This document shows, piece after piece, positions 3,004 through 62,290 of a stretch of 64,000 nt of DNA. The notes under the pieces were generated by a model. It made no database searches and had not been told where the DNA came from. It saw nothing but the letters and a program-made list of their open reading frames with translations. This stretch comes from a virus (lineage: Duplodnaviria; Caudoviricetes): the IMG/VR virus record IMGVR_UViG_3300033066_001917, positions 128,001-192,000 of that record. One strand, 5' to 3'. Positions within the stretch are counted from its first letter, which is position 1; each line of letters begins with the position of its first letter. Both the position numbers and the translations under genes were made by a program.

Positions 3004-3303
3004 TTAATTGATCTCGGTTACACGATTGATTGGTGACAGTCTTTGGTAGCCATCCTTTCCCTGGGCATACACCTTCCCGTCAATAATACTGGGTCCACCA
3101 CCTAGGAGATACAGAGTGTAGTCTATAGCTTTCTTCTCGTCTACACCCGCTGACAGTCGAACTGTTTGACCATTGTAAACAGTCATCGTCGTCACGATTG
3201 GGAGTGGGCTAGGATCACCCGCTACCCCAAGTGTGGTATGCTGACCATATATTTCAAGAATCTTACCATCCTTGAGCTCTACATTGCAAAGATGTTTCAA
3301 CAT
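3004..3303 (-). CDS. hypothetical protein
   Basis: ORF between tRNAs with AAGG upstream of ATG. Confidence 0.55.
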   Translation of the reverse strand: MLKHLCNVELKDGKILEIYGQHTTLGVAGDPSPLPIVTTMTVYNGQTVRLSAGVDEKKAIDYTLYLLGGGPSIIDGKVYAQGKDGYQRLSPINRVTEIN

Positions 3304-3314
3304 AACCTTAATTT

Positions 3315-3400
3315 TGGTGCGAAAGAGGGGACTTGAACCCCTAATGGTTATTAACCCTCGGATTTTAAATCCGCCGCGTCTGCCGTTCCGCCACTCTCGC
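3315..3400 (-). tRNA. tRNA-Leu(TAA)
   Basis: Loop TT-TAA-AA, long variable arm, CCA. Confidence 0.92.
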
Positions 3401-3684: not shown

Positions 3685-3760
3685 GTGCCACAGGTTGGAA
3701 TTGAACCAACTTCTCCGGGGCTTCAACCCAGCGCTTGTGTGCCTCTTCAGCTTCTGTGGC
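3685..3760 (-). tRNA. tRNA-Phe(GAA)
   Basis: Loop TT-GAA-GC, GTTCAATTC. Confidence 0.85.
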
Positions 3761-3768
3761 ATTGTTGA

Positions 3769-3836
3769 CAGGCGGACTGGGAGTCGAACCCAGCTCAAAC
3801 GGTTTTGGAGACCATCTGGATCCCGGACCTCCGCCT
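3769..3836 (-). tRNA. tRNA-Trp(CCA), reduced D arm
   Basis: ATGGT-CTCCAAA-ACCGT arm, GTTCGACTC. Confidence 0.8.
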
Positions 3837-3877
3837 AAATTGGCGAAAAGGTTGGGGTCGCCATAAAGGACCTAAGT

Positions 3878-14030: not shown

Positions 14031-14531
14031 CTAAACGTATGGGGCCCAGGTCGGATGGATCTCAGCCGGGAGGGCGGAATCCACCGAGACCGGACGGGCA
14101 GGTACGGTTCGCAGCACCATCTTTGCCTGCTCCGGTGTACGGTCAGCCTTTTTCGCATTGCAGGGCTGGCACGACGCCACGATATTGGTCCAGTCCGTCT
14201 TCCCACCCTTGGAGCGCGGGAGAACGTGATCCAGGGTGAGCTCTACCCCGGAGAAGGTCTTGCCGCAGTACTGACAGCAGTAACCGTCTCGGCGGTAAAC
14301 GTTCGCACGCGAGAACCGGGCACGACGCTCCTGCCGGGCGTACTTGCGCAGTCTCACGACTGAGGGCATCTGGATCGTGAGAGACGGGGATGAGACAGGG
14401 ATATCGTAGGATTCTAGGACATCCACCTTTCCGAGGAAGTCGAGCGTGACCGCCCGCTCCCAGGGGATGACCCCCATCACTTCATACGAGGCATTGAGGA
14501 GGAGAGCAACGAGGGACATGACGATGACCAT
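14031..14531 (-). CDS. HNH endonuclease (McrA-like)
   Basis: LLLNASYE...RDGYCCQYCG...LTLDHVLPRSKGG...WTNIVASCQPCN. Confidence 0.9.
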   Translation of the reverse strand: MVIVMSLVALLLNASYEVMGVIPWERAVTLDFLGKVDVLESYDIPVSSPSLTIQMPSVVRLRKYARQERRARFSRANVYRRDGYCCQYCGKTFSGVELTLDHVLPRSKGGKTDWTNIVASCQPCNAKKADRTPEQAKMVLRTVPARPVSVDSALPAEIHPTWAPYV

Positions 14532-14563
14532 TTCTGCCCCCGCGTTGTGAGGGGCTAGTGATT

Positions 14564-14652
14564 GCGGAAGGTGAGGGAATTGAACCCACGGACCTTATTA
14601 GGGCCAACCGTTTTCGAAACGGTCCCAACAAACCAGCATTTGGCTACCTTCC
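14564..14652 (-). tRNA. tRNA-Ser(CGA)
   Basis: Loop TT-CGA-AA, long variable arm. Confidence 0.9.
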
Positions 14653-14669
14653 ACGAGTTGAATTTCATA

Positions 14670-14760
14670 GCGGTGAGCAAGAGAATTGAACTCTTGGGCC
14701 CCTTTTGAGGACCATCTGCTTTCCAGGCAGACCCAGCGAACCAACATCTGGCTGCTCACC
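14670..14760 (-). tRNA. tRNA-Ser(GGA)
   Basis: Loop CT-GGA-AA, long variable arm. Confidence 0.9.
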
Positions 14761-14819
14761 TTGATATCGGTTAAGAGATAGAGAAACAAAGGGAAAACCG
14801 ACATTCCCGGGTAATTATT

Positions 14820-15026
14820 TTAGTACGTATCGTCTTCGTACCGCTTGGGTTTGGGCTTGTTGATGATTCTACGGCACTGAGGACAGGTCACATACCTTAC
14901 GTCTTCCCCCTCATCATGATCTCTGAATTCAACAATGTCCCCCGGATGGAAAGCCACCCGATAGCGACAATGTGGGCAAACTTCTTCCCATTCCCCTTCG
15001 GGGCGTTTACTTACGACCCTAGCCAT
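14820..15026 (-). CDS. small Zn-ribbon protein
   Basis: CPHC...CPQC. Confidence 0.6.
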   Translation of the reverse strand: MARVVSKRPEGEWEEVCPHCRYRVAFHPGDIVEFRDHDEGEDVRYVTCPQCRRIINKPKPKRYEDDTY

Positions 15027-15045
15027 TGCTTTCCAACCTACTTAT

Positions 15046-15121
15046 TGGCATCCTCGGCAGGAATCGCACCTGCGACCTTCGGCTTAGGAAGCCGCCGCTC
15101 TATCTCCTGAGCTACGAGGAC
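15046..15121 (-). tRNA. tRNA-Arg(CCT)
   Basis: Loop TT-CCT-AA, CCA. Confidence 0.9.
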
Positions 15122-15128
15122 ATCGAAT

Positions 15129-15206
15129 TGGTGCACACGGTGGGATTCGAACCCACACTGCTCGGCTTCTGAGACCGATGCCTCCTAACCTTTGGGCTAC
15201 GTGTGC
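15129..15206 (-). tRNA. tRNA-Leu(CAG), short variable loop
   Basis: TCGGT-CTCAGAA-GCCGA, CCA. Confidence 0.9.
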
Positions 15207-15209
15207 TCT

Positions 15210-15287
15210 TGGTCCCCGTGATAGGTCTTGCACCTACACTATATCTCAGGTTTGAGCTGAGTGCGACTGCTTTTGCGCCACACGGGG
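15210..15287 (-). tRNA. tRNA-Leu(CAA)
   Basis: CTCAG-CTCAAAC-CTGAG, TGCAAGA T-loop, CCA. Confidence 0.82.
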
Positions 15288-15294
15288 GAACAAT

Positions 15295-15386
15295 GTCCGT
15301 CTCTCCGGACTGTCAAGCACCCAAAAAGACCCCAACAAACACGCTCGCTTTGTTGCATTTGCTGGTGGCCGTCTTTCCGACCTGTC
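15295..15386 (-). ncRNA. two C4-antisense-like hairpins
   Basis: GACA-GGTCGGAAAGACGGCC and GACA-GTCCGGAGAGACGGAC. Confidence 0.5.
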
Positions 15387-15402
15387 TTCTATTAAAGAGC
15401 AT

Positions 15403-15493
15403 GTCCTTACACGAACGGACAATATTCCGACTGGATTGGACTCAAGGGGAAACCTTACACGAACGGGTTAATATTCCGACTGGATTGGTTTCC
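15403..15493 (-). repeat. tandem structured repeat, 2 units
   Basis: CCAATCCAGTCGGAATATT-N2/3-CCGTTCGTGTAAGG twice, with different closing stems. Confidence 0.85.
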
Positions 15494-15494
15494 T

Positions 15495-15569
15495 TGGCAC
15501 TCCCGGTGGGAATCGAACCCACGTTTAGAGATTGAAAGGCTCTGATCCTAACCTTTAGAAGACGGGAGC
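15495..15569 (-). tRNA. tRNA-Glu(TTC)
   Basis: Loop CT-TTC-AA, CCA. Confidence 0.9.
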
Positions 15570-15623
15570 AACATTCACTATTACGATCGGTAGCGATAAC
15601 TGATTTACCAAATCGACACTGTT

Positions 15624-15788
15624 TTAGTTGTGGGCCAACAATCGATCCGTGAGCTGTTCCCACAAGCTCTCCTCCCAAGGGCTAAGATCCTCACCCCGGG
15701 CCTCGGCTTCGTGAAGTTGGAGGGAGAGGGCCTCAGCCTTCACCGGATCAAAGTTTTCCAAGGCTTCTCGCAACTGCTTTAGATACAT
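15624..15788 (-). CDS. 54-aa protein not in the ORF track (MYLKQLREALENFDPVKAEAL...)
   Basis: GAGGTG RBS, ATG...TAA, helical composition. Confidence 0.65.
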   Translation of the reverse strand: MYLKQLREALENFDPVKAEALSLQLHEAEARGEDLSPWEESLWEQLTDRLLAHN

Positions 15789-15819
15789 CACACACCTCAC
15801 TGGAATTAGCGGAAATTAA

Positions 15820-15978
15820 GTGCAGCGTGTCGGGCTCGATCCCGAATCATCAACCCACCGTACTCACCACCCACGAACGTGGCTTTCGGAAAGGTTGGTG
15901 ACGACCCATCCCATCCCCTTAACCCCTGGGTTCGTGACCCCCCAAAGATTAGGCGAAGTGAGATATGTGTCGCGCTGC
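15820..15978 (-). ncRNA. tRNA-ended structured RNA (~160 nt)
   Basis: GCAGCG/CGCTGC-A terminal stem with T-like arm TCGGG-ATCGAG-CCCGA. Confidence 0.55.
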
Positions 15979-15979
15979 T

Positions 15980-16052
15980 TGGCACCCCATACAGGAGTCG
16001 AACCTGTCATGGCTGGTTTAGAAGACCTGCCTCCGCGTCCGGCGGATGGGGC
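15980..16052 (-). tRNA. tRNA-Arg(TCT), reduced D arm
   Basis: Loop CT-TCT-AA, GTTCGACTC, CCA. Confidence 0.82.
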
Positions 16053-16061
16053 ATAGAAACA

Positions 16062-16187
16062 TAGAGATGGTTGGATTTGAACCAACGTCCTGCGCCTGTT
16101 TTATCCGATTAAACTACATCCCCCTTACGGAAGAGGTGGGATTCGAACCCACAATCTGGCACTGTTCCGCCTCAGAACTTCATCTCT
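16062..16187 (-). ncRNA. anticodon-less double-elbow tRNA-like RNA
   Basis: Two D arms and two canonical T arms, no anticodon loop. Confidence 0.8.
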
Positions 16188-16193
16188 TCAATC

Positions 16194-16267
16194 GGTAGGT
16201 CCGTAGGGTAACGATCCCTCTTCTGCGGCTTAAAAGGCCGCGGCTCATCCACTAAAGCTTCGGACCC
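16194..16267 (-). tRNA. tRNA-Lys(TTT)
   Basis: GCGGC-CTTTTAA-GCCGC; ATCGTTA T-loop. Confidence 0.85.
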
Positions 16268-16269
16268 AT

Positions 16270-16411
16270 GTGACGGGTTGGGTACCGTCCCCGATTAGAT
16301 CGGACTATTTTTTTGACCCGGAGTTTCCGGTATTCCCCAGCTAGGGGTCTGCTGCGGGTGCGGCCCCCGATGAGCTGCGATATCATGATCGCAATCGGGA
16401 CTAAGCGTCAC
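16270..16411 (-). ncRNA. multi-stem structured RNA
   Basis: GTGACG/CGTCAC and GTCCCGATT/AATCGGGGAC enclosing several hairpins. Confidence 0.55.
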
Positions 16412-16418
16412 CCTCTCG

Positions 16419-16502
16419 TGTCCGGGGATGGAGTTGAACCACCCCACAAAACCGTACGGCTTTTCACCATCATGTTTTATGGGCGCCCTTCGCGCCAGGG
16501 AC
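16419..16502 (-). ncRNA. tRNA-like RNA with elongated non-canonical anticodon arm
   Basis: GTCC/GGAC-A end, GGTGG-TTCAACT-CCATC T arm, CATAAAAC/GTTTTGTG stem. Confidence 0.55.
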
Positions 16503-16503
16503 C

Positions 16504-16653
16504 TGATTCATTGAATCTAATCAGAGTCGGGGAGTTGAATCCCGCGCAATTCATCCTGCCACCATGGCATCACGGACTCGAACCGTGCGGACTACTTTAC
16601 CGAGGTCTCTCGGTTACGCCAACCGTGGATCTCTGATTAGATTCAATGAATCA
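16504..16653 (-). ncRNA. structured RNA with 23-bp terminal stem and two T-loop hairpins
   Basis: TGATTCATTGAATCTAATCAGAG perfect inverted repeat; TTCGAGT and TTCAACT loops. Confidence 0.7.
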
Positions 16654-16725
16654 TGGTGGAGGTAGAGGGAGTCGAACCCTCTCGTTTCGCGTGCAAGGCG
16701 AAACTCTAGCCCACTAGCTACCCCC
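16654..16725 (-). tRNA. tRNA-Ala(TGC)
   Basis: Loop CT-TGC-AC, G3:U70, CCA. Confidence 0.88.
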
Positions 16726-17266
16726 TTTCGTGATAGGGGACCATTCTTGTTTTCAAGGCATGGCACCAGACACATAAAACTTCAAGATTACTTAGATTAT
16801 TGTTACTCCTGTTACCATCTATATGGTGAACATCAAGCATTCTAATTTCTTTCCCATATCCGCAAAGGGAACAAATCGTACCGTGAAGCCCTAATGCTTT
16901 TGCTCTGTAAGAGGTTTTGCCCGTGGCATAATGATCAGGTTGAACGGCTGTAATTCCACCAATATGTTGGGCTAGTTCTTTGCATTTTCTGTCGCAGAAA
17001 GATAATCCGGATTTTGATACACTTAATTTTGAGGGTATCCGAGCTATGGTTTCACCGCACTGGGCACATTGTGTTGTGACTCTATTTTTTCGATGGAGAG
17101 ACGAACAATGCCGACTGCAAAACACATTGCCCTTCAAAGTATGTTTTGGTCTATATGTGGGTTTCCCACATTGTAAACAGGATACCTGATATAACTTCCT
17201 TACACGGTTGTCATATTCTGACGAAACAATAGCAGTGGGGATCATAATCTTATGTTTGCTATGCAA
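16718..17266 (-). CDS. HNH homing endonuclease with Zn-ribbon repeats
   Basis: CxxC/FCSxxC repeats; LDVHHIDGNRSNNNLSNLEVLCVWCH. Confidence 0.88.
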   Translation of the reverse strand: MHSKHKIMIPTAIVSSEYDNRVRKLYQVSCLQCGKPTYRPKHTLKGNVFCSRHCSSLHRKNRVTTQCAQCGETIARIPSKLSVSKSGLSFCDRKCKELAQHIGGITAVQPDHYATGKTSYRAKALGLHGTICSLCGYGKEIRMLDVHHIDGNRSNNNLSNLEVLCVWCHALKTRMVPYHERG

Positions 17267-18337: not shown

Positions 18338-18835
18338 TCAAATGTTAGCGGAAAGAAGATTGCGGAGTTTTTCTGGCGCAAGCGGGATTGTATCGAGAAA
18401 CCCCACCATCTCCTGACGGTACATTGATAAAAGGCGAGGGTTCCCATCACGAAGACAGGACCGAACATTTGCAAGCCGATCCGCTGCCTTTACCGTCTGG
18501 GCATCACAATCACCCACCAGCTTCAGTTTGATACTTGCCTGCTTCTCTTTCCGGTTCCGACCGTAGCCCGAACACTTCTCCACCGTTGGAGCAGCGTGGG
18601 GGAATGCTTCCAGGAGCTCGGCGTAGAGAACAGGCGTGTCCTCCAGGACATCATGTAGATAACCGGCGTCTGAAAGATGACCCATCCCCTCGCTACGAAG
18701 GATACCCACCACTTCATCGAGATGATGAACGTAGGGGTGGGAACCATACATCTGGCCCCGATGTGCATGTTCAGCATAGCTTCGAGCATCCATAGGAATG
18801 CTTACGTTTGAGCCGTCAGTTCCAGGACACGCCAC
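18338..18835 (-). CDS. HD-domain (p)ppGpp hydrolase-like protein (SpoT/Mesh1 type)
   Basis: AHRGQ...PYVHH...LHDVLEDT...VKAADRLAN. Confidence 0.85.
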   Translation of the reverse strand: MACPGTDGSNVSIPMDARSYAEHAHRGQMYGSHPYVHHLDEVVGILRSEGMGHLSDAGYLHDVLEDTPVLYAELLEAFPHAAPTVEKCSGYGRNRKEKQASIKLKLVGDCDAQTVKAADRLANVRSCLRDGNPRLLSMYRQEMVGFLDTIPLAPEKLRNLLSANI

Positions 18836-25402: not shown

Positions 25403-25442
25403 ACGAAAAAAGTTGAAGGAAGACGTTACATGGCCCCATTAG

Positions 25443-25522
25443 TGGGAAGTGATGGAATTGAACCATCATTACATTGTAGGGTTAACCCCCTACTTTGGTC
25501 CTAGTCTTTGGATGAACTTCCC
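25443..25522 (-). tRNA. atypical tRNA with extended anticodon arm
   Basis: GGGAAGT/ACTTCCC acceptor, T arm intact, GTAGGG-GGTTAA-CCCTAC. Confidence 0.6.
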
Positions 25523-25581
25523 TTATGGTCTACTACCTTACGAATCCGATAGTCTTCTGATTTGAAAAATCGAACTCCGGG

Positions 25582-38260: not shown

Positions 38261-39250
38261 TTGAGTCACAATTGCATGGAAAAGAAGACATGCCCCCACT
38301 GCGGAACGGAATTCGTGAGTAGGTGGAGTAGTCGATTCTGCTCGAAATCGTGTTGGTATGACAGTATCAGACCGAAGGTTAGCGGGATTTGCGGTCATTG
38401 TGGCAATGGTGCTCTAGATCCGTTGCGAACCAGACTAGCAAGGAGGTCCAAGTCGGGTCACATCTTCTGCAACCATTCGTGTGCGGCAAAATACAGCAAC
38501 ACCCACAAAACCACTGGCACCCGTAGGTCCAAACTGGAGGTGTGGCTAGAAGAGAGGCTTCGGGAACGCTACCCGGACCTTGACATCCACTGTAACCGAA
38601 CTGATGCAATCAATGGCGAGCTGGACATCTATTTCCCAGGACTGAAGCTAGCTTTCGAGCTCAACGGGATTTTCCATTACGAACCCATCTACGGGGAGAA
38701 AAACTTGGGGAGGACCCAAACTAACGATGCCAGGAAATTTGCGGCCTGTACCGAACGAGGGATTGAATTGTGTGTGATTGACACGAGCAGGATGCTTTAC
38801 TTCAAAGAGAGGTGGGCTCACGAACACCTGAAGGTGGTTTGTGAGGTTCTTGATGGGGTGATTGCTCAGAGAGTTGGAGATGGGTGGGATATTGGATCAA
38901 CGGATCCCACAAGAGGGAGAGCGAGCACTCCCGAACCGGTCAAACCAAGAGAGTTGCCGTTTGGTGCGGCAAAACTGTTGGAGAGGGCTATGACGTGGGA
39001 TGTTGAGATGAGAGACAATGGATGGAGCCAAGGAGATTTGGCTAAACGGGAGGGGATTCACGTTAGCATTGTAGCTAGAACAATGTCCACTTTGAGGATT
39101 CCAGAGGAAATGAAACAGAAACTGCTGTCCAGAGATCCATCTCTTGGTAAATTGACAACCCGTCAAATTCTCAGTTTAGCTCGGAGTCAACCAAAAAGTG
39201 GGAAATATAACTCTAAATTTGGAGTGAGGAGGGAGACTCGAACTCCCTAG
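38261..39250 (+). CDS. Zn-ribbon + PD-(D/E)XK endonuclease + HTH, copy 2
   Basis: Core nearly identical to 7128..8132 (SKSGHIFCNHSCAAKY...ELDIYFPGLKLAFELNGIFHYEPIYG). Confidence 0.82.
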   Translation: MSHNCMEKKTCPHCGTEFVSRWSSRFCSKSCWYDSIRPKVSGICGHCGNGALDPLRTRLARRSKSGHIFCNHSCAAKYSNTHKTTGTRRSKLEVWLEERLRERYPDLDIHCNRTDAINGELDIYFPGLKLAFELNGIFHYEPIYGEKNLGRTQTNDARKFAACTERGIELCVIDTSRMLYFKERWAHEHLKVVCEVLDGVIAQRVGDGWDIGSTDPTRGRASTPEPVKPRELPFGAAKLLERAMTWDVEMRDNGWSQGDLAKREGIHVSIVARTMSTLRIPEEMKQKLLSRDPSLGKLTTRQILSLARSQPKSGKYNSKFGVRRETRTP

Positions 39251-39309
39251 ATCCCATTACGGGCACAGGGGCCACAACCCTGCCGCTGGACCACTTTGCG
39301 CTTCCTCAC
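39220..39309 (-). tRNA. tRNA-His(GTG) with long variable arm
   Basis: CAGGG-TTGTGGC-CCCTG, 18-nt variable region, CCA. Confidence 0.8.
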
Positions 39310-39321
39310 AAACAAAAACCA

Positions 39322-39406
39322 TGCAGCGTGAGGGAATCGAACCCCCTCTGATCCTAAGACCTCCCGGGTTACGGCCGGGACCCTTCCCATTCAGGCGCAA
39401 CGCTGC
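39322..39406 (-). tRNA. tRNA-Tyr(GTA)
   Basis: CCCGG-CCGTAAC-CCGGG, long variable arm. Confidence 0.82.
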
Positions 39407-39418
39407 GTCAATCATGAG

Positions 39419-39502
39419 TGGAAGTGGTAGGATTTGCACCTACGGGGGTTTTTAGGCCAACGGGTTTACAGCCCATCGCTATCGCTACTCAGCCACACTT
39501 CC
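39419..39502 (-). tRNA. tRNA-Tyr(GTA)
   Basis: ATGGG-CTGTAAA-CCCGT, long variable arm, TGCAAAT T-loop. Confidence 0.88.
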
Positions 39503-39649: not shown

Positions 39650-39994
39650 TTAACTTGGTTTTTGTTTCAAACATTCACGGCAAGTTACCCGGCCCCATAC
39701 CCAGGCTCTAATCGAGTGGGGGGGCGCTAAACCACACACGGAATCCCCCCACTCGGTACTAGCGTGGACCCCACATTGTGTGCAACCATGGGTACCACAT
39801 GGGTGACTGACACCAGCACATCCCGTTTTGATGCGGCGGCACTCGGAACACCACCCAGCGCACGTATCATAACAACTCAAATCCGGTGGGGCTGTGAGTT
39901 CACACTCTCTCCCACAAGGGAGAACGTGCCTTACTTTCAAACCATCGGGATCTTGACCACATAGGGTTCCACATCGCTCACAGTTTACGAACAT
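39650..39994 (-). CDS. Cys-rich hypothetical protein
   Basis: Many CxxC. Confidence 0.5.
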   Translation of the reverse strand: MFVNCERCGTLCGQDPDGLKVRHVLPCGRECELTAPPDLSCYDTCAGWCSECRRIKTGCAGVSHPCGTHGCTQCGVHASTEWGDSVCGLAPPHSIRAWVWGRVTCRECLKQKPS

Positions 39995-39997
39995 GAT

Positions 39998-40462
39998 TCA
40001 AAGCTCCAAAATCGTTGGTAGGATGTCAACCATTGGATCGTTGCCAAGAGTATGGCATAGATCTTGCCAAGTTGTGAGCCGTTTCGATAGCTGACCAAAT
40101 CTAACAATGCTTCCGTCTCGCCCGTAGCCATAGAATTGAATGAGAGCTACGCGCCACGTATTGTTCGAGGGGTCAAATACAATGGAACCTCCTACAAGTG
40201 GTTCAAGTTTCCCGTCCTCCCATCTATCCCCTTCTTTCTCAATCCAGCAATCCAACCCCAACCATTTTATGTCCGCGTGGAGAACATGGTATGCATCCCC
40301 AAAGAGAATCTCTCCGGTTTGAAGAACCACAAATCGGGCCAGCTTATGGTTTCCAAGGGGGGTGAGATTGTCGAACCAATCCCTAGTAGGGTCGGATACA
40401 ATTGAAATAGGTGCTTTGGACTCGTATTTTCTCCACGCTGGGATAACTTGACGGATTCTCAT
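39998..40462 (-). CDS. hypothetical protein
   Basis: GAGG RBS. Confidence 0.6.
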   Translation of the reverse strand: MRIRQVIPAWRKYESKAPISIVSDPTRDWFDNLTPLGNHKLARFVVLQTGEILFGDAYHVLHADIKWLGLDCWIEKEGDRWEDGKLEPLVGGSIVFDPSNNTWRVALIQFYGYGRDGSIVRFGQLSKRLTTWQDLCHTLGNDPMVDILPTILEL

Positions 40463-48577: not shown

Positions 48578-48594
48578 GTTGATACTCTCCTTCC

Positions 48595-48680
48595 GGACGC
48601 AGATGGTGGAGTCGAACCACCACAATACCCCACACACCCTGGCGGGCGACTCACCGGAGTCCTTTTCGTTGGGATCTGCG
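48595..48680 (-). ncRNA. isolated tRNA-like RNA without canonical anticodon arm
   Basis: CGCAGAT/ATCTGCG acceptor, GGTGG-TTCGACT-CCACC T arm. Confidence 0.65.
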
Positions 48681-48690
48681 ATAGGGGCAA

Positions 48691-49086
48691 TCACCCCTGA
48701 TTCATGCAATCACTACAAATGCAAGAGTAAGCGACCCCGGGACAGGGGGCAAGACACCATTCACACTCGTTGATCTCAGGATCCCGAAGGCACTTCGGAC
48801 AAACAGACCAAGGATGGTCCGTCTCTTCACCACAAACGGTACACGGAACAACGATTTCCATGGGATTCATTGTGAGAGCCCGAAGGAGACCCGGGGAAAC
48901 ATCCACATGCTGGCGTGTGAAGGACTCCTCAAGGTCAAGGAAACCGTCACCAAGGTCTTGGCGAATCGTCAAAACCGTGCCCTTGGAGAAAACCTCCCGA
49001 TACACAGCCTTGATTGACCCATTGACCGTCTTCCCACACCACTGGTAGAGAGGATATGTTAGGGTCGTAACGTCTCCCGTGTTCAT
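48691..49086 (-). CDS. hypothetical Cys-rich protein
   Basis: Coupled ORF. Confidence 0.5.
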   Translation of the reverse strand: MNTGDVTTLTYPLYQWCGKTVNGSIKAVYREVFSKGTVLTIRQDLGDGFLDLEESFTRQHVDVSPGLLRALTMNPMEIVVPCTVCGEETDHPWSVCPKCLRDPEINECEWCLAPCPGVAYSCICSDCMNQG

Positions 49087-62182: not shown

Positions 62183-62290
62183 ATCCATAGGCTGCGGTCG
62201 AATCCGCAGCCGTTCTATTCTGGATGTTCATCTGGGGGGTCATGGTTTGAGCCTTCGGACTACTTTACTCTACTGAAGAGGACTATGGGT
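62183..62290 (-). ncRNA. structured RNA related to 16504..16653
   Basis: CCATAG/CTATGG closing stem, GTAAAGTAGTCCG, GGCTGCGG-ATTCGA-CCGCAGCC. Confidence 0.55.

Follow-up and report, generated by a model that had tools for sequence, protein, structure and literature searches.

Structured RNA genes, several of them tRNA-derived, lie between the tRNAs of a phage array and are conserved in related lineages

Clusters of tRNA genes in phage genomes are usually annotated as tRNAs separated by empty spacers. In the tRNA cluster of T4, species 1 and species 2 (rnaC/rnaD) are stable RNAs that are not tRNAs, are co-transcribed with the tRNAs, and are released by the tRNA-processing pathway; to our knowledge, their function is still unexplained. 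The mascRNA of MALAT1 and the tRNA-miRNA transcripts of murine gammaherpesvirus 68 (MHV68) contain a tRNA-shaped module that recruits RNase P or RNase Z for precise excision of a non-decoding RNA. GOLLD and ROOL are phage-encoded structured RNAs of unexplained function, typically found in or beside tRNA islands (PMC12286853), and generic tRNA-like candidate structured RNAs are known from viral metagenomes (PMC10690425). YrlA is a substrate of tRNA enzymes (PMC4201824), and armless and 8/4 or 9/3 non-canonical tRNAs lack one arm or divide their base pairs differently between the acceptor and T stems, with a stacked length that stays near 12 bp (PMC5389517). Here, we analyzed the spacers, named E1 to E9, of a tRNA array in a window of 64,000 nucleotides, which corresponds to bases 128001-192000 of the 200-kb IMG/VR virus record IMGVR_UViG_3300033066_001917 (Caudoviricetes). 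As this 200-kb record is estimated to be 38% complete, its source is a huge phage. Comparison with related phages indicates that these spacers are real, conserved RNA genes with helices under selection, encoded on the same strand as the tRNAs.

ARAGORN predicted 29 tRNAs in the window, all on the minus strand, and near-identical DNA was present in wastewater and river metagenomes from 12 studies. An earlier note on this DNA had described the spacers between tRNA-Ala and tRNA-Leu as filled by self-closed structures, and all seven of the intervals that it listed do hold minus-strand folds. The structures are thus real, but not all of them are single, since the interval 16062-16187 corresponds to two adjacent tRNA-like units (E4 and E5). 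The region 15498-15800, taken for spacer at that time, holds a tRNA-Glu(UUC) and a gene for a 54-aa protein, both of which had been missed. The features of the array are listed below in their 5′ to 3′ order on the minus strand, followed by a short stretch that overlaps two of them.

16654..16725, minus strand: tRNA-Ala(UGC) with an encoded CCA (ARAGORN, Rfam); E1 begins at the next base
16504..16653, minus strand: E1, a core enclosed by a 23-bp terminal stalk (fold, covariance)
16412..16503, minus strand: E2, a cloverleaf-shaped tRNA-like RNA (fold, covariance)
16268..16411, minus strand: E3, a multi-hairpin RNA that is not tRNA-like (fold, covariance)
16194..16267, minus strand: tRNA-Lys(UUU) (ARAGORN, Rfam)
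16124..16187, minus strand: E4, a 6-bp acceptor-like stem stacked directly on a T arm (GUGGG-UUCGAAU-CCCAC), with no D arm
16062..16123, minus strand: E5, a tRNA body lacking the anticodon arm, with a 7-bp acceptor stem, one arm and a T arm
15980..16052, minus strand: tRNA-Arg(UCU) with an encoded CCA; E6 begins one base later
15820..15979, minus strand: E6, a "giant cloverleaf" (fold, three-lineage alignment)
15624..15788, minus strand: gene for a 54-aa protein within the array (open reading frame (ORF), profile search)
15570..15623, minus strand: E7, a spacer with a conserved 21-nt block (GAUUUGGUAAAUCAGUUAUCG) and no stable fold
15498..15569, minus strand: tRNA-Glu(UUC) with CCA (Rfam, 49 bits; called by ARAGORN only at a relaxed threshold)
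15403..15495, minus strand: E8, two tandem copies of a hairpin of 40-46 nt
15288..15402, minus strand: E9, two GACAG-stem-GARAGA hairpins flanking a hairpin with the invariant loop ACAACAAAGCGA
15210..15287, minus strand: tRNA-Leu(CAA), 99% identical to its copy in the related contig L067
16400..16420, minus strand: 21 nt at the boundary of E2 and E3 (CACGAGAGGGUGACGCUUAGU), unchanged between the window and L067

Relatives were found through homologs of an HD_4-domain protein encoded upstream of the array, by searching a collection of 5.8 billion proteins, which returned three homologs at 73-78% identity on Logan and ENA contigs. L067, a Logan contig of 6.2 kb, holds the complete array, with its order unchanged and about 70% identity. 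The Logan contigs L071 and L072, which represent a third lineage and were found through the family of the 54-aa ORF, carry E6, the ORF, E7, tRNA-Glu, E8, E9, two tRNA-Leu and a tRNA-Arg(CCU). The order of the elements is identical in the three lineages, from E6 onward in L071/L072. The prospect, raised in the earlier note, that the spacers might prove unconserved in relatives was thus not borne out by the synteny comparison, the array being kept in L067 and part of it in L071/L072. Between the window and L067, identity was 76% for E6, 75% for E9, 69% for E7, 64% for both E1 and E8, 62% for E2, 61% for both E3 and E5, and 49% for E4, while it ranged from 77 to 99% for the tRNAs and was 53% for the embedded ORF. 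As every spacer except E4 was better conserved than the adjacent coding sequence, neutral spacer DNA can be ruled out.

The strength of the folds differed between elements. E1 and E6 stood out as single sequences (see below), whereas the folds of E2, E3, E4, E5, E8 and E9 had z-scores of −0.9 to −2.3, only slightly better than those of shuffled sequences, and are thus not above chance when taken alone. Covariation was analyzed in alignments of two to four sequences per element (the window and its relatives). Invariant U.G pairs were found when the minus strand was read (e.g., E6 columns 15-73 and 34-55); on the other strand, they would be A.C mismatches. Since these pairs exist only on the minus-strand reading, the transcribed strand is that of the tRNAs. 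Among strain variants from a river metagenome (run X10), few positions differed, and two of the three stem changes became U.G, which is about the chance level for transitions.

In E1, the terminal stem is a perfect helix of 23 bp (minimum free energy z-score of −6.8; none of 200 shuffles was as good). In the core, a helix of 4 bp surrounds a long arm with the hairpin CCGAG/CUCGG, followed by a T arm of canonical form (CACGG-UUCGAGU-CCGUG) and a short closed hairpin; after this helix come the invariant GGAUGAAUUGC and then a second T-arm-like hairpin. The L067 homolog, folded alone, formed the same stalk at 22 bp (z −8.3). When the alignment was refitted to the covariance model R1, built on the proposed structure, 17 of 50 pairs were altered on both sides between the window and L067, including 12 of the 23 pairs of the stalk, with 98% of the cells paired; controls with slid partners gave zero or one double change, and none of 500 shuffles reached the observed value. 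The stalk includes a G.U pair, which can form only in RNA. In L067, a 115-aa gene lies between tRNA-Ala and E1, yet E1 is fully conserved. E1 is present in a single copy in the 200-kb fragment: a candidate second copy at 62183-62290 was rejected, as it shares only a 13-mer and GATGAA with E1 and was missed by model R1 at E up to 10.

In the river-metagenome strain of run X10, one contig joins position 16440 to 16567, near the T arms of E2 and E1, and another diverges at 16601; this break may be either a strain-level rearrangement of E1 and E2 or an assembly break at the 23-bp inverted repeat.

E6 folds into a cloverleaf of unusual size. Its acceptor-like stem has 6 bp, the D position is taken by an arm of 70 nt, and the anticodon position by an arm of 55 nt, which ends in an 8-nt loop. 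Its T-like arm has 6 bp and the invariant loop AUCGAGC, and makes up 12 stacked pairs with the acceptor-like stem. The fold had a z-score of −4.0 (0 of 200 shuffles were as good), and a plain MAFFT alignment of the three lineages supported the four-helix cloverleaf, with 15 of 54 pairs altered on both sides and 95.7% of the cells paired; slid partners gave 0 to 4 double changes, and no shuffle out of 500 was as high. In the three lineages, 5-6 nt in the apical loop of one long arm can pair with the apical loop of the other (CACGAA(C)/GUUCGUG), which suggests a loop-loop contact between CACGAA and UUCGUG, a proposal drawn from positions that barely vary. E6 occurs once in the 200-kb fragment and lies 0-1 nt after the CCA of a tRNA in all three lineages. 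A tmRNA (RF00023) was considered for E6, which has an acceptor stem and a T arm, and was rejected: the element is 160 nt long, was called by neither Rfam nor ARAGORN, and the phage has its real tmRNA elsewhere (genome positions 39905-40278, outside the window).

The 8-mer CGUUCGUG is shared by one apical loop of E6 and the conserved internal loop of both E8 units; the sites of the 8-mer and of its complement are at 15871-15877 and 15930-15936 in E6 and at 15411-15418 and 15457-15464 in E8. As the complement of CGUUCGUG, CACGAAC, lies in the other apical loop of E6, contacts are possible both inside E6 and between E6 and E8.

E2 is closed by a stem of 4 bp. A hairpin occupies its D position, its long arm of 8 bp contains an inner hairpin, and its T arm reads GGUGG-UUCAACU-CCAUC, but it has neither a 7-nt anticodon loop nor a CCA. 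The candidate loop of its long arm is UGAAAAG in the window and the 6-nt AAAAGA in L067, and is thus not an anticodon loop, since its length differs between the two phages. Six of its 21 pairs were altered on both sides between the window and L067, and 100% were paired. Pairing was also complete in E3, in which 4 of 31 pairs were altered on both sides, all of them in the 5′ domain; the 5′ two-thirds of this element consist of conserved, covarying hairpins, and the 3′ third is variable with indels.

E5 scored 47.5 bits as a tRNA (RF00005), with the 17 model positions of the anticodon arm replaced by 5 nt. It remains a three-way junction in L067, although the single arm, which is D-like in the window, is a different GC hairpin in L067, and the stacked stems are of 7+5 bp in the window and 8+3 bp in the L067 fold. 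This element was read by hand, as the MAFFT alignment was register-shifted and the RNAalifold fold uninformative. E4, at 49% identity, is the least conserved element; its L067 copy has a 59-nt insertion and no T arm, and E4 may be drifting.

In E7, the GAUUUGGUAAAUCAGUUAUCG block and a CGUAAnA motif just upstream of tRNA-Glu are kept in three lineages, and the block may be an internal, phage-specific promoter or a processing signal. The closing stem of E8 covaries over five copies, while its internal-loop strands, CAGU and (U/G)UCGUGUA, are invariant. The relatives have one copy and a small UUCG hairpin, and E8 was found directly 3′ of tRNA-Glu in all four sequences and at a single locus in the 200-kb fragment. 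The hairpins of E9 show three double-sided changes and are accompanied by long invariant single-stranded blocks, including the stretch UUGGGUGCUUGACAG, invariant in four sequences. A conserved non-coding stretch (GGCACUAGCCGU ...) was also observed after tRNA-Ala at L067 3650-3880 and at 3100-3390 of the contig L070; it ends in another GACAG-stem-GAGAG hairpin before a gene of 115-118 aa that is missing from the window.

The features of several elements point to remodelled tRNAs. A scan for exact T arms (a 5-bp stem with a UUCRANY loop) found them at 16070 (E5), 16136 (E4), 16427 (E2) and 16571 (E1), each running directly into the 3′ strand of the closing stem. The T arm on the acceptor-like stem is exact in E2, E4 and E5 and has the variant loop AUCGAGC in E6, and E1 has two T-arm hairpins. 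None of these tRNA-like units has a conserved anticodon arm with a 7-nt loop, and none encodes CCA, whereas tRNA-Ala, tRNA-Arg and tRNA-Glu of the array do. As the anticodon arm and the encoded CCA have been lost, the tRNA-like elements cannot decode. These motifs and folds indicate that four or five elements, namely E2, E4, E5, E6 and, in part, E1, are tRNA-derived. The Rfam search proposed in the earlier note gave a family match for E5 alone, as a truncated tRNA. With E-values of up to 10 allowed, RF00005 (gathering threshold of 29 bits) did not match E1, E2, E3, E4, E6, E8 or E9, and no meaningful match was obtained to any other family, including YrlA, GOLLD, ROOL, RNase P and tmRNA. GOLLD and ROOL gave no match in the window at the gathering threshold and none at E up to 10 over 14500-16800. 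For YrlA (RF02553, gathering threshold of 69 bits), no match to E1 was seen at E up to 10, the only matches being of 25-26 bits on tRNAs or tRNA-like units elsewhere. A literature search returned GOLLD/ROOL and the generic tRNA-like candidates, and nothing matching these elements.

The covariance models R1 and R3 had no match in five other huge-phage records, and E1, E6 and E8 were not found in the other loci that were fetched. As these three elements are single-locus and absent from the other loci and records examined, they represent distinct, lineage-restricted RNA families. The phage GenBank collection gave only tRNA matches, and exact-pattern scans of IMG/VR (E8 core, gapped E1 core, E1 20-mer and a tRNA-Leu(CAA) anchor) gave chance matches in coding sequence or nothing. 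In the JGI metagenomes, the E1 20-mer had no match, and the tRNA-Leu anchor retrieved one unrelated dense tRNA array (L075). Attempts to lengthen the contigs L070 and L071 on their upstream side yielded no additional sequence. The IMG/VR relatives of the HD protein are at most 46% identical, and two of their loci, L020 and L021, share the layout of a tRNA array plus an HD gene, with no homology in the spacers. In these two loci (L020 1-6512 and L021 1-6552), several tRNAs, for Ile, Gly, Thr and Asn, were called at excessive lengths of 86-96 nt, and spacers contained T arms not called by ARAGORN; tRNA remodelling may thus extend beyond this lineage.

Three other genes in the vicinity of the array are relevant to its interpretation:

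18338-18835, minus strand: HD_4-domain protein of the small alarmone-hydrolase type, upstream of the array
16718-17266, minus strand: HNH endonuclease gene flanking the array
14031-14531, minus strand: HNH endonuclease gene flanking the array on the other side

The array begins about 1.6 kb downstream of the HD_4 gene. Among bacteria, the HD_4 protein is closest (about 45%) to homologs of Variovorax, Roseateles and Accumulibacter, a possible sign that the host is betaproteobacterial. The HNH genes are probably mobile homing-endonuclease insertions, since L067 has no HNH gene at this place. The 54-aa ORF belongs to a family with 144 representatives at E up to 1e-3 (profile built from the ORF and its L067 homolog), mostly of 55-70 aa and without a Pfam match; its members lie mostly among small phage genes, outside tRNA arrays (e.g., L073, L074, L076 and L077). 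Word-indexed protein searches with this ORF and with the 115-aa gene of L067 returned only the queries themselves. The tRNA-Glu(UUC) of the array shares 90% identity with its L067 counterpart, and its anticodon stem contains a C31.U39 mismatch. Outside the window, ARAGORN called a tRNA with a CUA anticodon (amber-suppressor type; C1:94376-94449, minus strand) and the tmRNA mentioned above (C1:39905-40278, plus strand), with the tag ANDNDVPAFAAAA. Five additional elements not called by ARAGORN, at 3757-3868, 25431-25542, 39211-39322, 39310-39421 and 48585-48696 (minus strand), all have a perfect acceptor stem and a T arm; one of them combines a GUG anticodon loop with a long variable arm, one is Tyr-like with C33, and in one the anticodon loop is of the GGUUAAC type. 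Remodelling of tRNAs appears to be a genome-wide habit of this phage.

Several observations bear on how the array is expressed. No intrinsic terminator was found on the minus strand within 16725-15046, and the neighbouring genes are co-oriented with the array. A scan of the minus strand for sigma-70 promoters found none, a TTGACA in E9 having no acceptable −10 element. The elements and the tRNA ends abut at 0-2 nt at the Ala/E1, E3/Lys and Arg/E6 junctions, as correctly pointed out in the earlier note. Its broader proposal, a set of non-coding RNAs linked to the tRNAs, also holds insofar as the elements are real, distinct, conserved, co-oriented and free of an internal terminator, although the remodelled-tRNA nature of most of them had not been recognised. 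In two metatranscriptome runs, contigs bridge tRNA/element junctions at 15925-16246, 15199-15691 and 16423-16802, but these contigs are weak evidence because depth was low and DNA carry-over is possible. The same contigs do not cover the HNH gene at 16850-17225 and are patchy over E3, and holes between contigs prove nothing.

The stacked acceptor and T helices of a tRNA (about 11-12 bp) are the module measured by RNase P, RNase Z, CCA-adding and tRNA-modifying enzymes. For RNase P, these two stacked helices suffice, and duplexes from about 20 bp upward are substrates of RNase III. Given these substrate requirements, we infer that RNase P and RNase III separate the units of the array. The array would be transcribed together with the tRNAs; RNase P would cut 5′ of every tRNA and tRNA-like unit and RNase III would cut the E1 stalk, whose 22-23 bp are of suitable length and kind, and these cuts would separate neighbours that lie 0-2 nt apart. 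Co-transcription and release by tRNA-processing enzymes are likely. Once released, the tRNA-shaped RNAs would be stable and would act in trans on factors that read the shape of a tRNA and not its anticodon. Taken together, we consider it rather probable that at least six distinct, lineage-specific genes for structured RNAs make up a conserved cassette among the tRNAs, and that their tRNA-shaped RNAs are released and act in trans.

Several points weigh against this interpretation. With two to four sequences per element, the number of independent covariation events is small, and the ends given for the elements are predictions, as is the accumulation of the RNAs. Not every unit is under the same constraint, as E4 shows poor conservation and its L067 copy has no T arm, and one mechanism may not cover all the units, as E3, E8 and E9 have no tRNA features. 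An internal promoter in E7, if present, may split the array into two transcription units. Lastly, the 200-kb fragment, an estimated 38% of the genome, yielded no partner encoded by the phage: searches for Ro60/TROVE, RtcB and PolyA_pol/CCA-adding proteins were negative.

The main rival explanation is that the elements act only in cis, as processing stalks, folding insulators or protective hairpins for tRNA maturation, and are then degraded. Such a role would agree with the abutment to tRNA ends at 0-2 nt, with the invariable position of E8 directly 3′ of tRNA-Glu in four sequences and of E6 after a tRNA CCA, and with the resemblance of the E1 stalk to the leader-trailer helices of rRNA. However, it has no need of cores of 150-160 nt with invariant single-stranded blocks and at least four covarying helices, it does not account for the full conservation of E1 in L067, where the 115-aa gene parts it from tRNA-Ala, and there are dense tRNA arrays that lack spacers of this kind (e.g., L075); we thus regard it as possible but unlikely. 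E1 could also be a YrlA-like Y-RNA whose Ro60/Rsr-like partner is encoded in the unsequenced part of the genome, as its topology resembles that of YrlA, in which the ends form a long stem and the arms that follow are a variable-type arm, a T arm, an acceptor-like hairpin that is closed, and one more hairpin (PMC4201824). This appears improbable. No TROVE match was found in the 200 kb (about 38% of the genome), and E1 had no Rfam YrlA match at E up to 10. As the stalk is perfect and 12 of its 23 pairs differ between relatives, E1 lacks the conserved bulged Ro60-binding motif (GNCGAAN0-1G, PMC4201824), and the hairpin at the D position, the last in the order arm, T arm, short closed hairpin and further hairpin, is T-like and not D-like.

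A reading of the elements as neutral spacer and as tRNA pseudogenes in decay would fit the truncated tRNA form of several units and the strong divergence of E4 (49% identity, an insertion, and the T arm lost in L067). It is very improbable for the array, in which the spacers surpass the adjacent coding sequence in conservation, 95-100% of the cells are paired with many double changes, and the order is kept in three lineages; decay is contradicted for E1, E2, E3, E5, E6, E8 and E9, and possible for E4 alone. A role at the DNA level, with the E1 inverted repeat as a miniature transposable element, a cruciform or a nuclease target tied to the HNH genes, takes its appeal from the perfect 23-bp terminal inverted repeats and the HNH genes at 16718-17266 and 14031-14531, but is hardly credible: E1 is single-copy in the 200 kb, L067 keeps E1 without an HNH gene, and the arms have been altered at 12 pairs yet remain complementary, including through a G.U pair that is of use only in RNA, while the core hairpins covary. 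Equally remote is the idea of unusual decoding tRNAs with expanded arms or introns. ARAGORN, when introns were allowed, called 16062-16187 as a tRNA-Phe(AAA) with a 54-nt intron, and the phage has other odd tRNAs and an amber suppressor; however, the units have no conserved 7-nt anticodon loop and no encoded CCA, and the intron call was not kept in L067.

Beyond the cassette of RNAs acting in trans, which we favour, one could envisage that phage tRNA mimics and a stalk-closed tRNA-like RNA are excised by host enzymes and titrate readers of tRNA shape, the whole forming an RNA-only module for counter-defence or take-over of the host. Candidate targets of such mimics are tRNA-targeting immune nucleases, toxins that modify the CCA end, and tRNA-modifying or stress-sensing proteins. 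A counter-defence role is an attractive hypothesis because of the expanded translation and tRNA toolkit and the HD_4 alarmone-hydrolase-type gene nearby, but we put it forward as a tentative and, at this stage, doubtful proposal.

These results indicate that the spacers of this tRNA cluster are under clear selection as folded RNAs and that, in several elements, a tRNA gene has been rebuilt into a non-decoding RNA that retains its processing handle. They provide at least six putative new RNA families (E1, E2, E3, E5, E6 and E8/E9), with structural models and the covariance models R1, R2 and R3, as well as a system in which the role of the unexplained "extra" RNAs of phage tRNA clusters can be asked, and may be relevant to the tRNA-centred conflicts between phages and bacterial immunity.

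When compared to known systems, E1 resembles YrlA (RF02553; PMC4201824) in that its ends form a long stem around a tRNA-like module, which includes both a T arm and an acceptor-like hairpin that is closed, but differs from it by the lack of an Rfam match, of the bulged Ro60-binding helix, of a D-arm-like hairpin and of a TROVE gene in the 200 kb. As in the RNase III stalks of rRNA leaders and trailers, the flanks of E1 form a helix of about 22 bp in which the sequence is free and the pairing is kept; unlike them, the helix encloses a tRNA-like core of 104 nt and not an rRNA, and RNase III cleavage is here a prediction. GOLLD and ROOL are single RNAs of 500-800 nt with their own Rfam models, whereas the present elements are of 45-160 nt and mostly tRNA-derived. 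The stacked stems of E5, of 7+5 bp in the window and 8+3 bp in L067, recall the 8/4 and 9/3 tRNAs, but these non-canonical tRNAs keep an anticodon arm and decode, unlike E2, E4, E5 and E6. The mascRNA and MHV68 systems are eukaryotic or from an animal virus and show no homology to the array, in which the tRNA-shaped RNA itself is the apparent product. The nearest functional analogy is with species 1 and 2 of T4, which are likewise non-tRNA RNAs among phage tRNA genes. They have no sequence relation to the elements described here, which comprise at least six RNAs, several of them clearly tRNA-derived, and include a 23-bp stalk and a giant cloverleaf of 160 nt.

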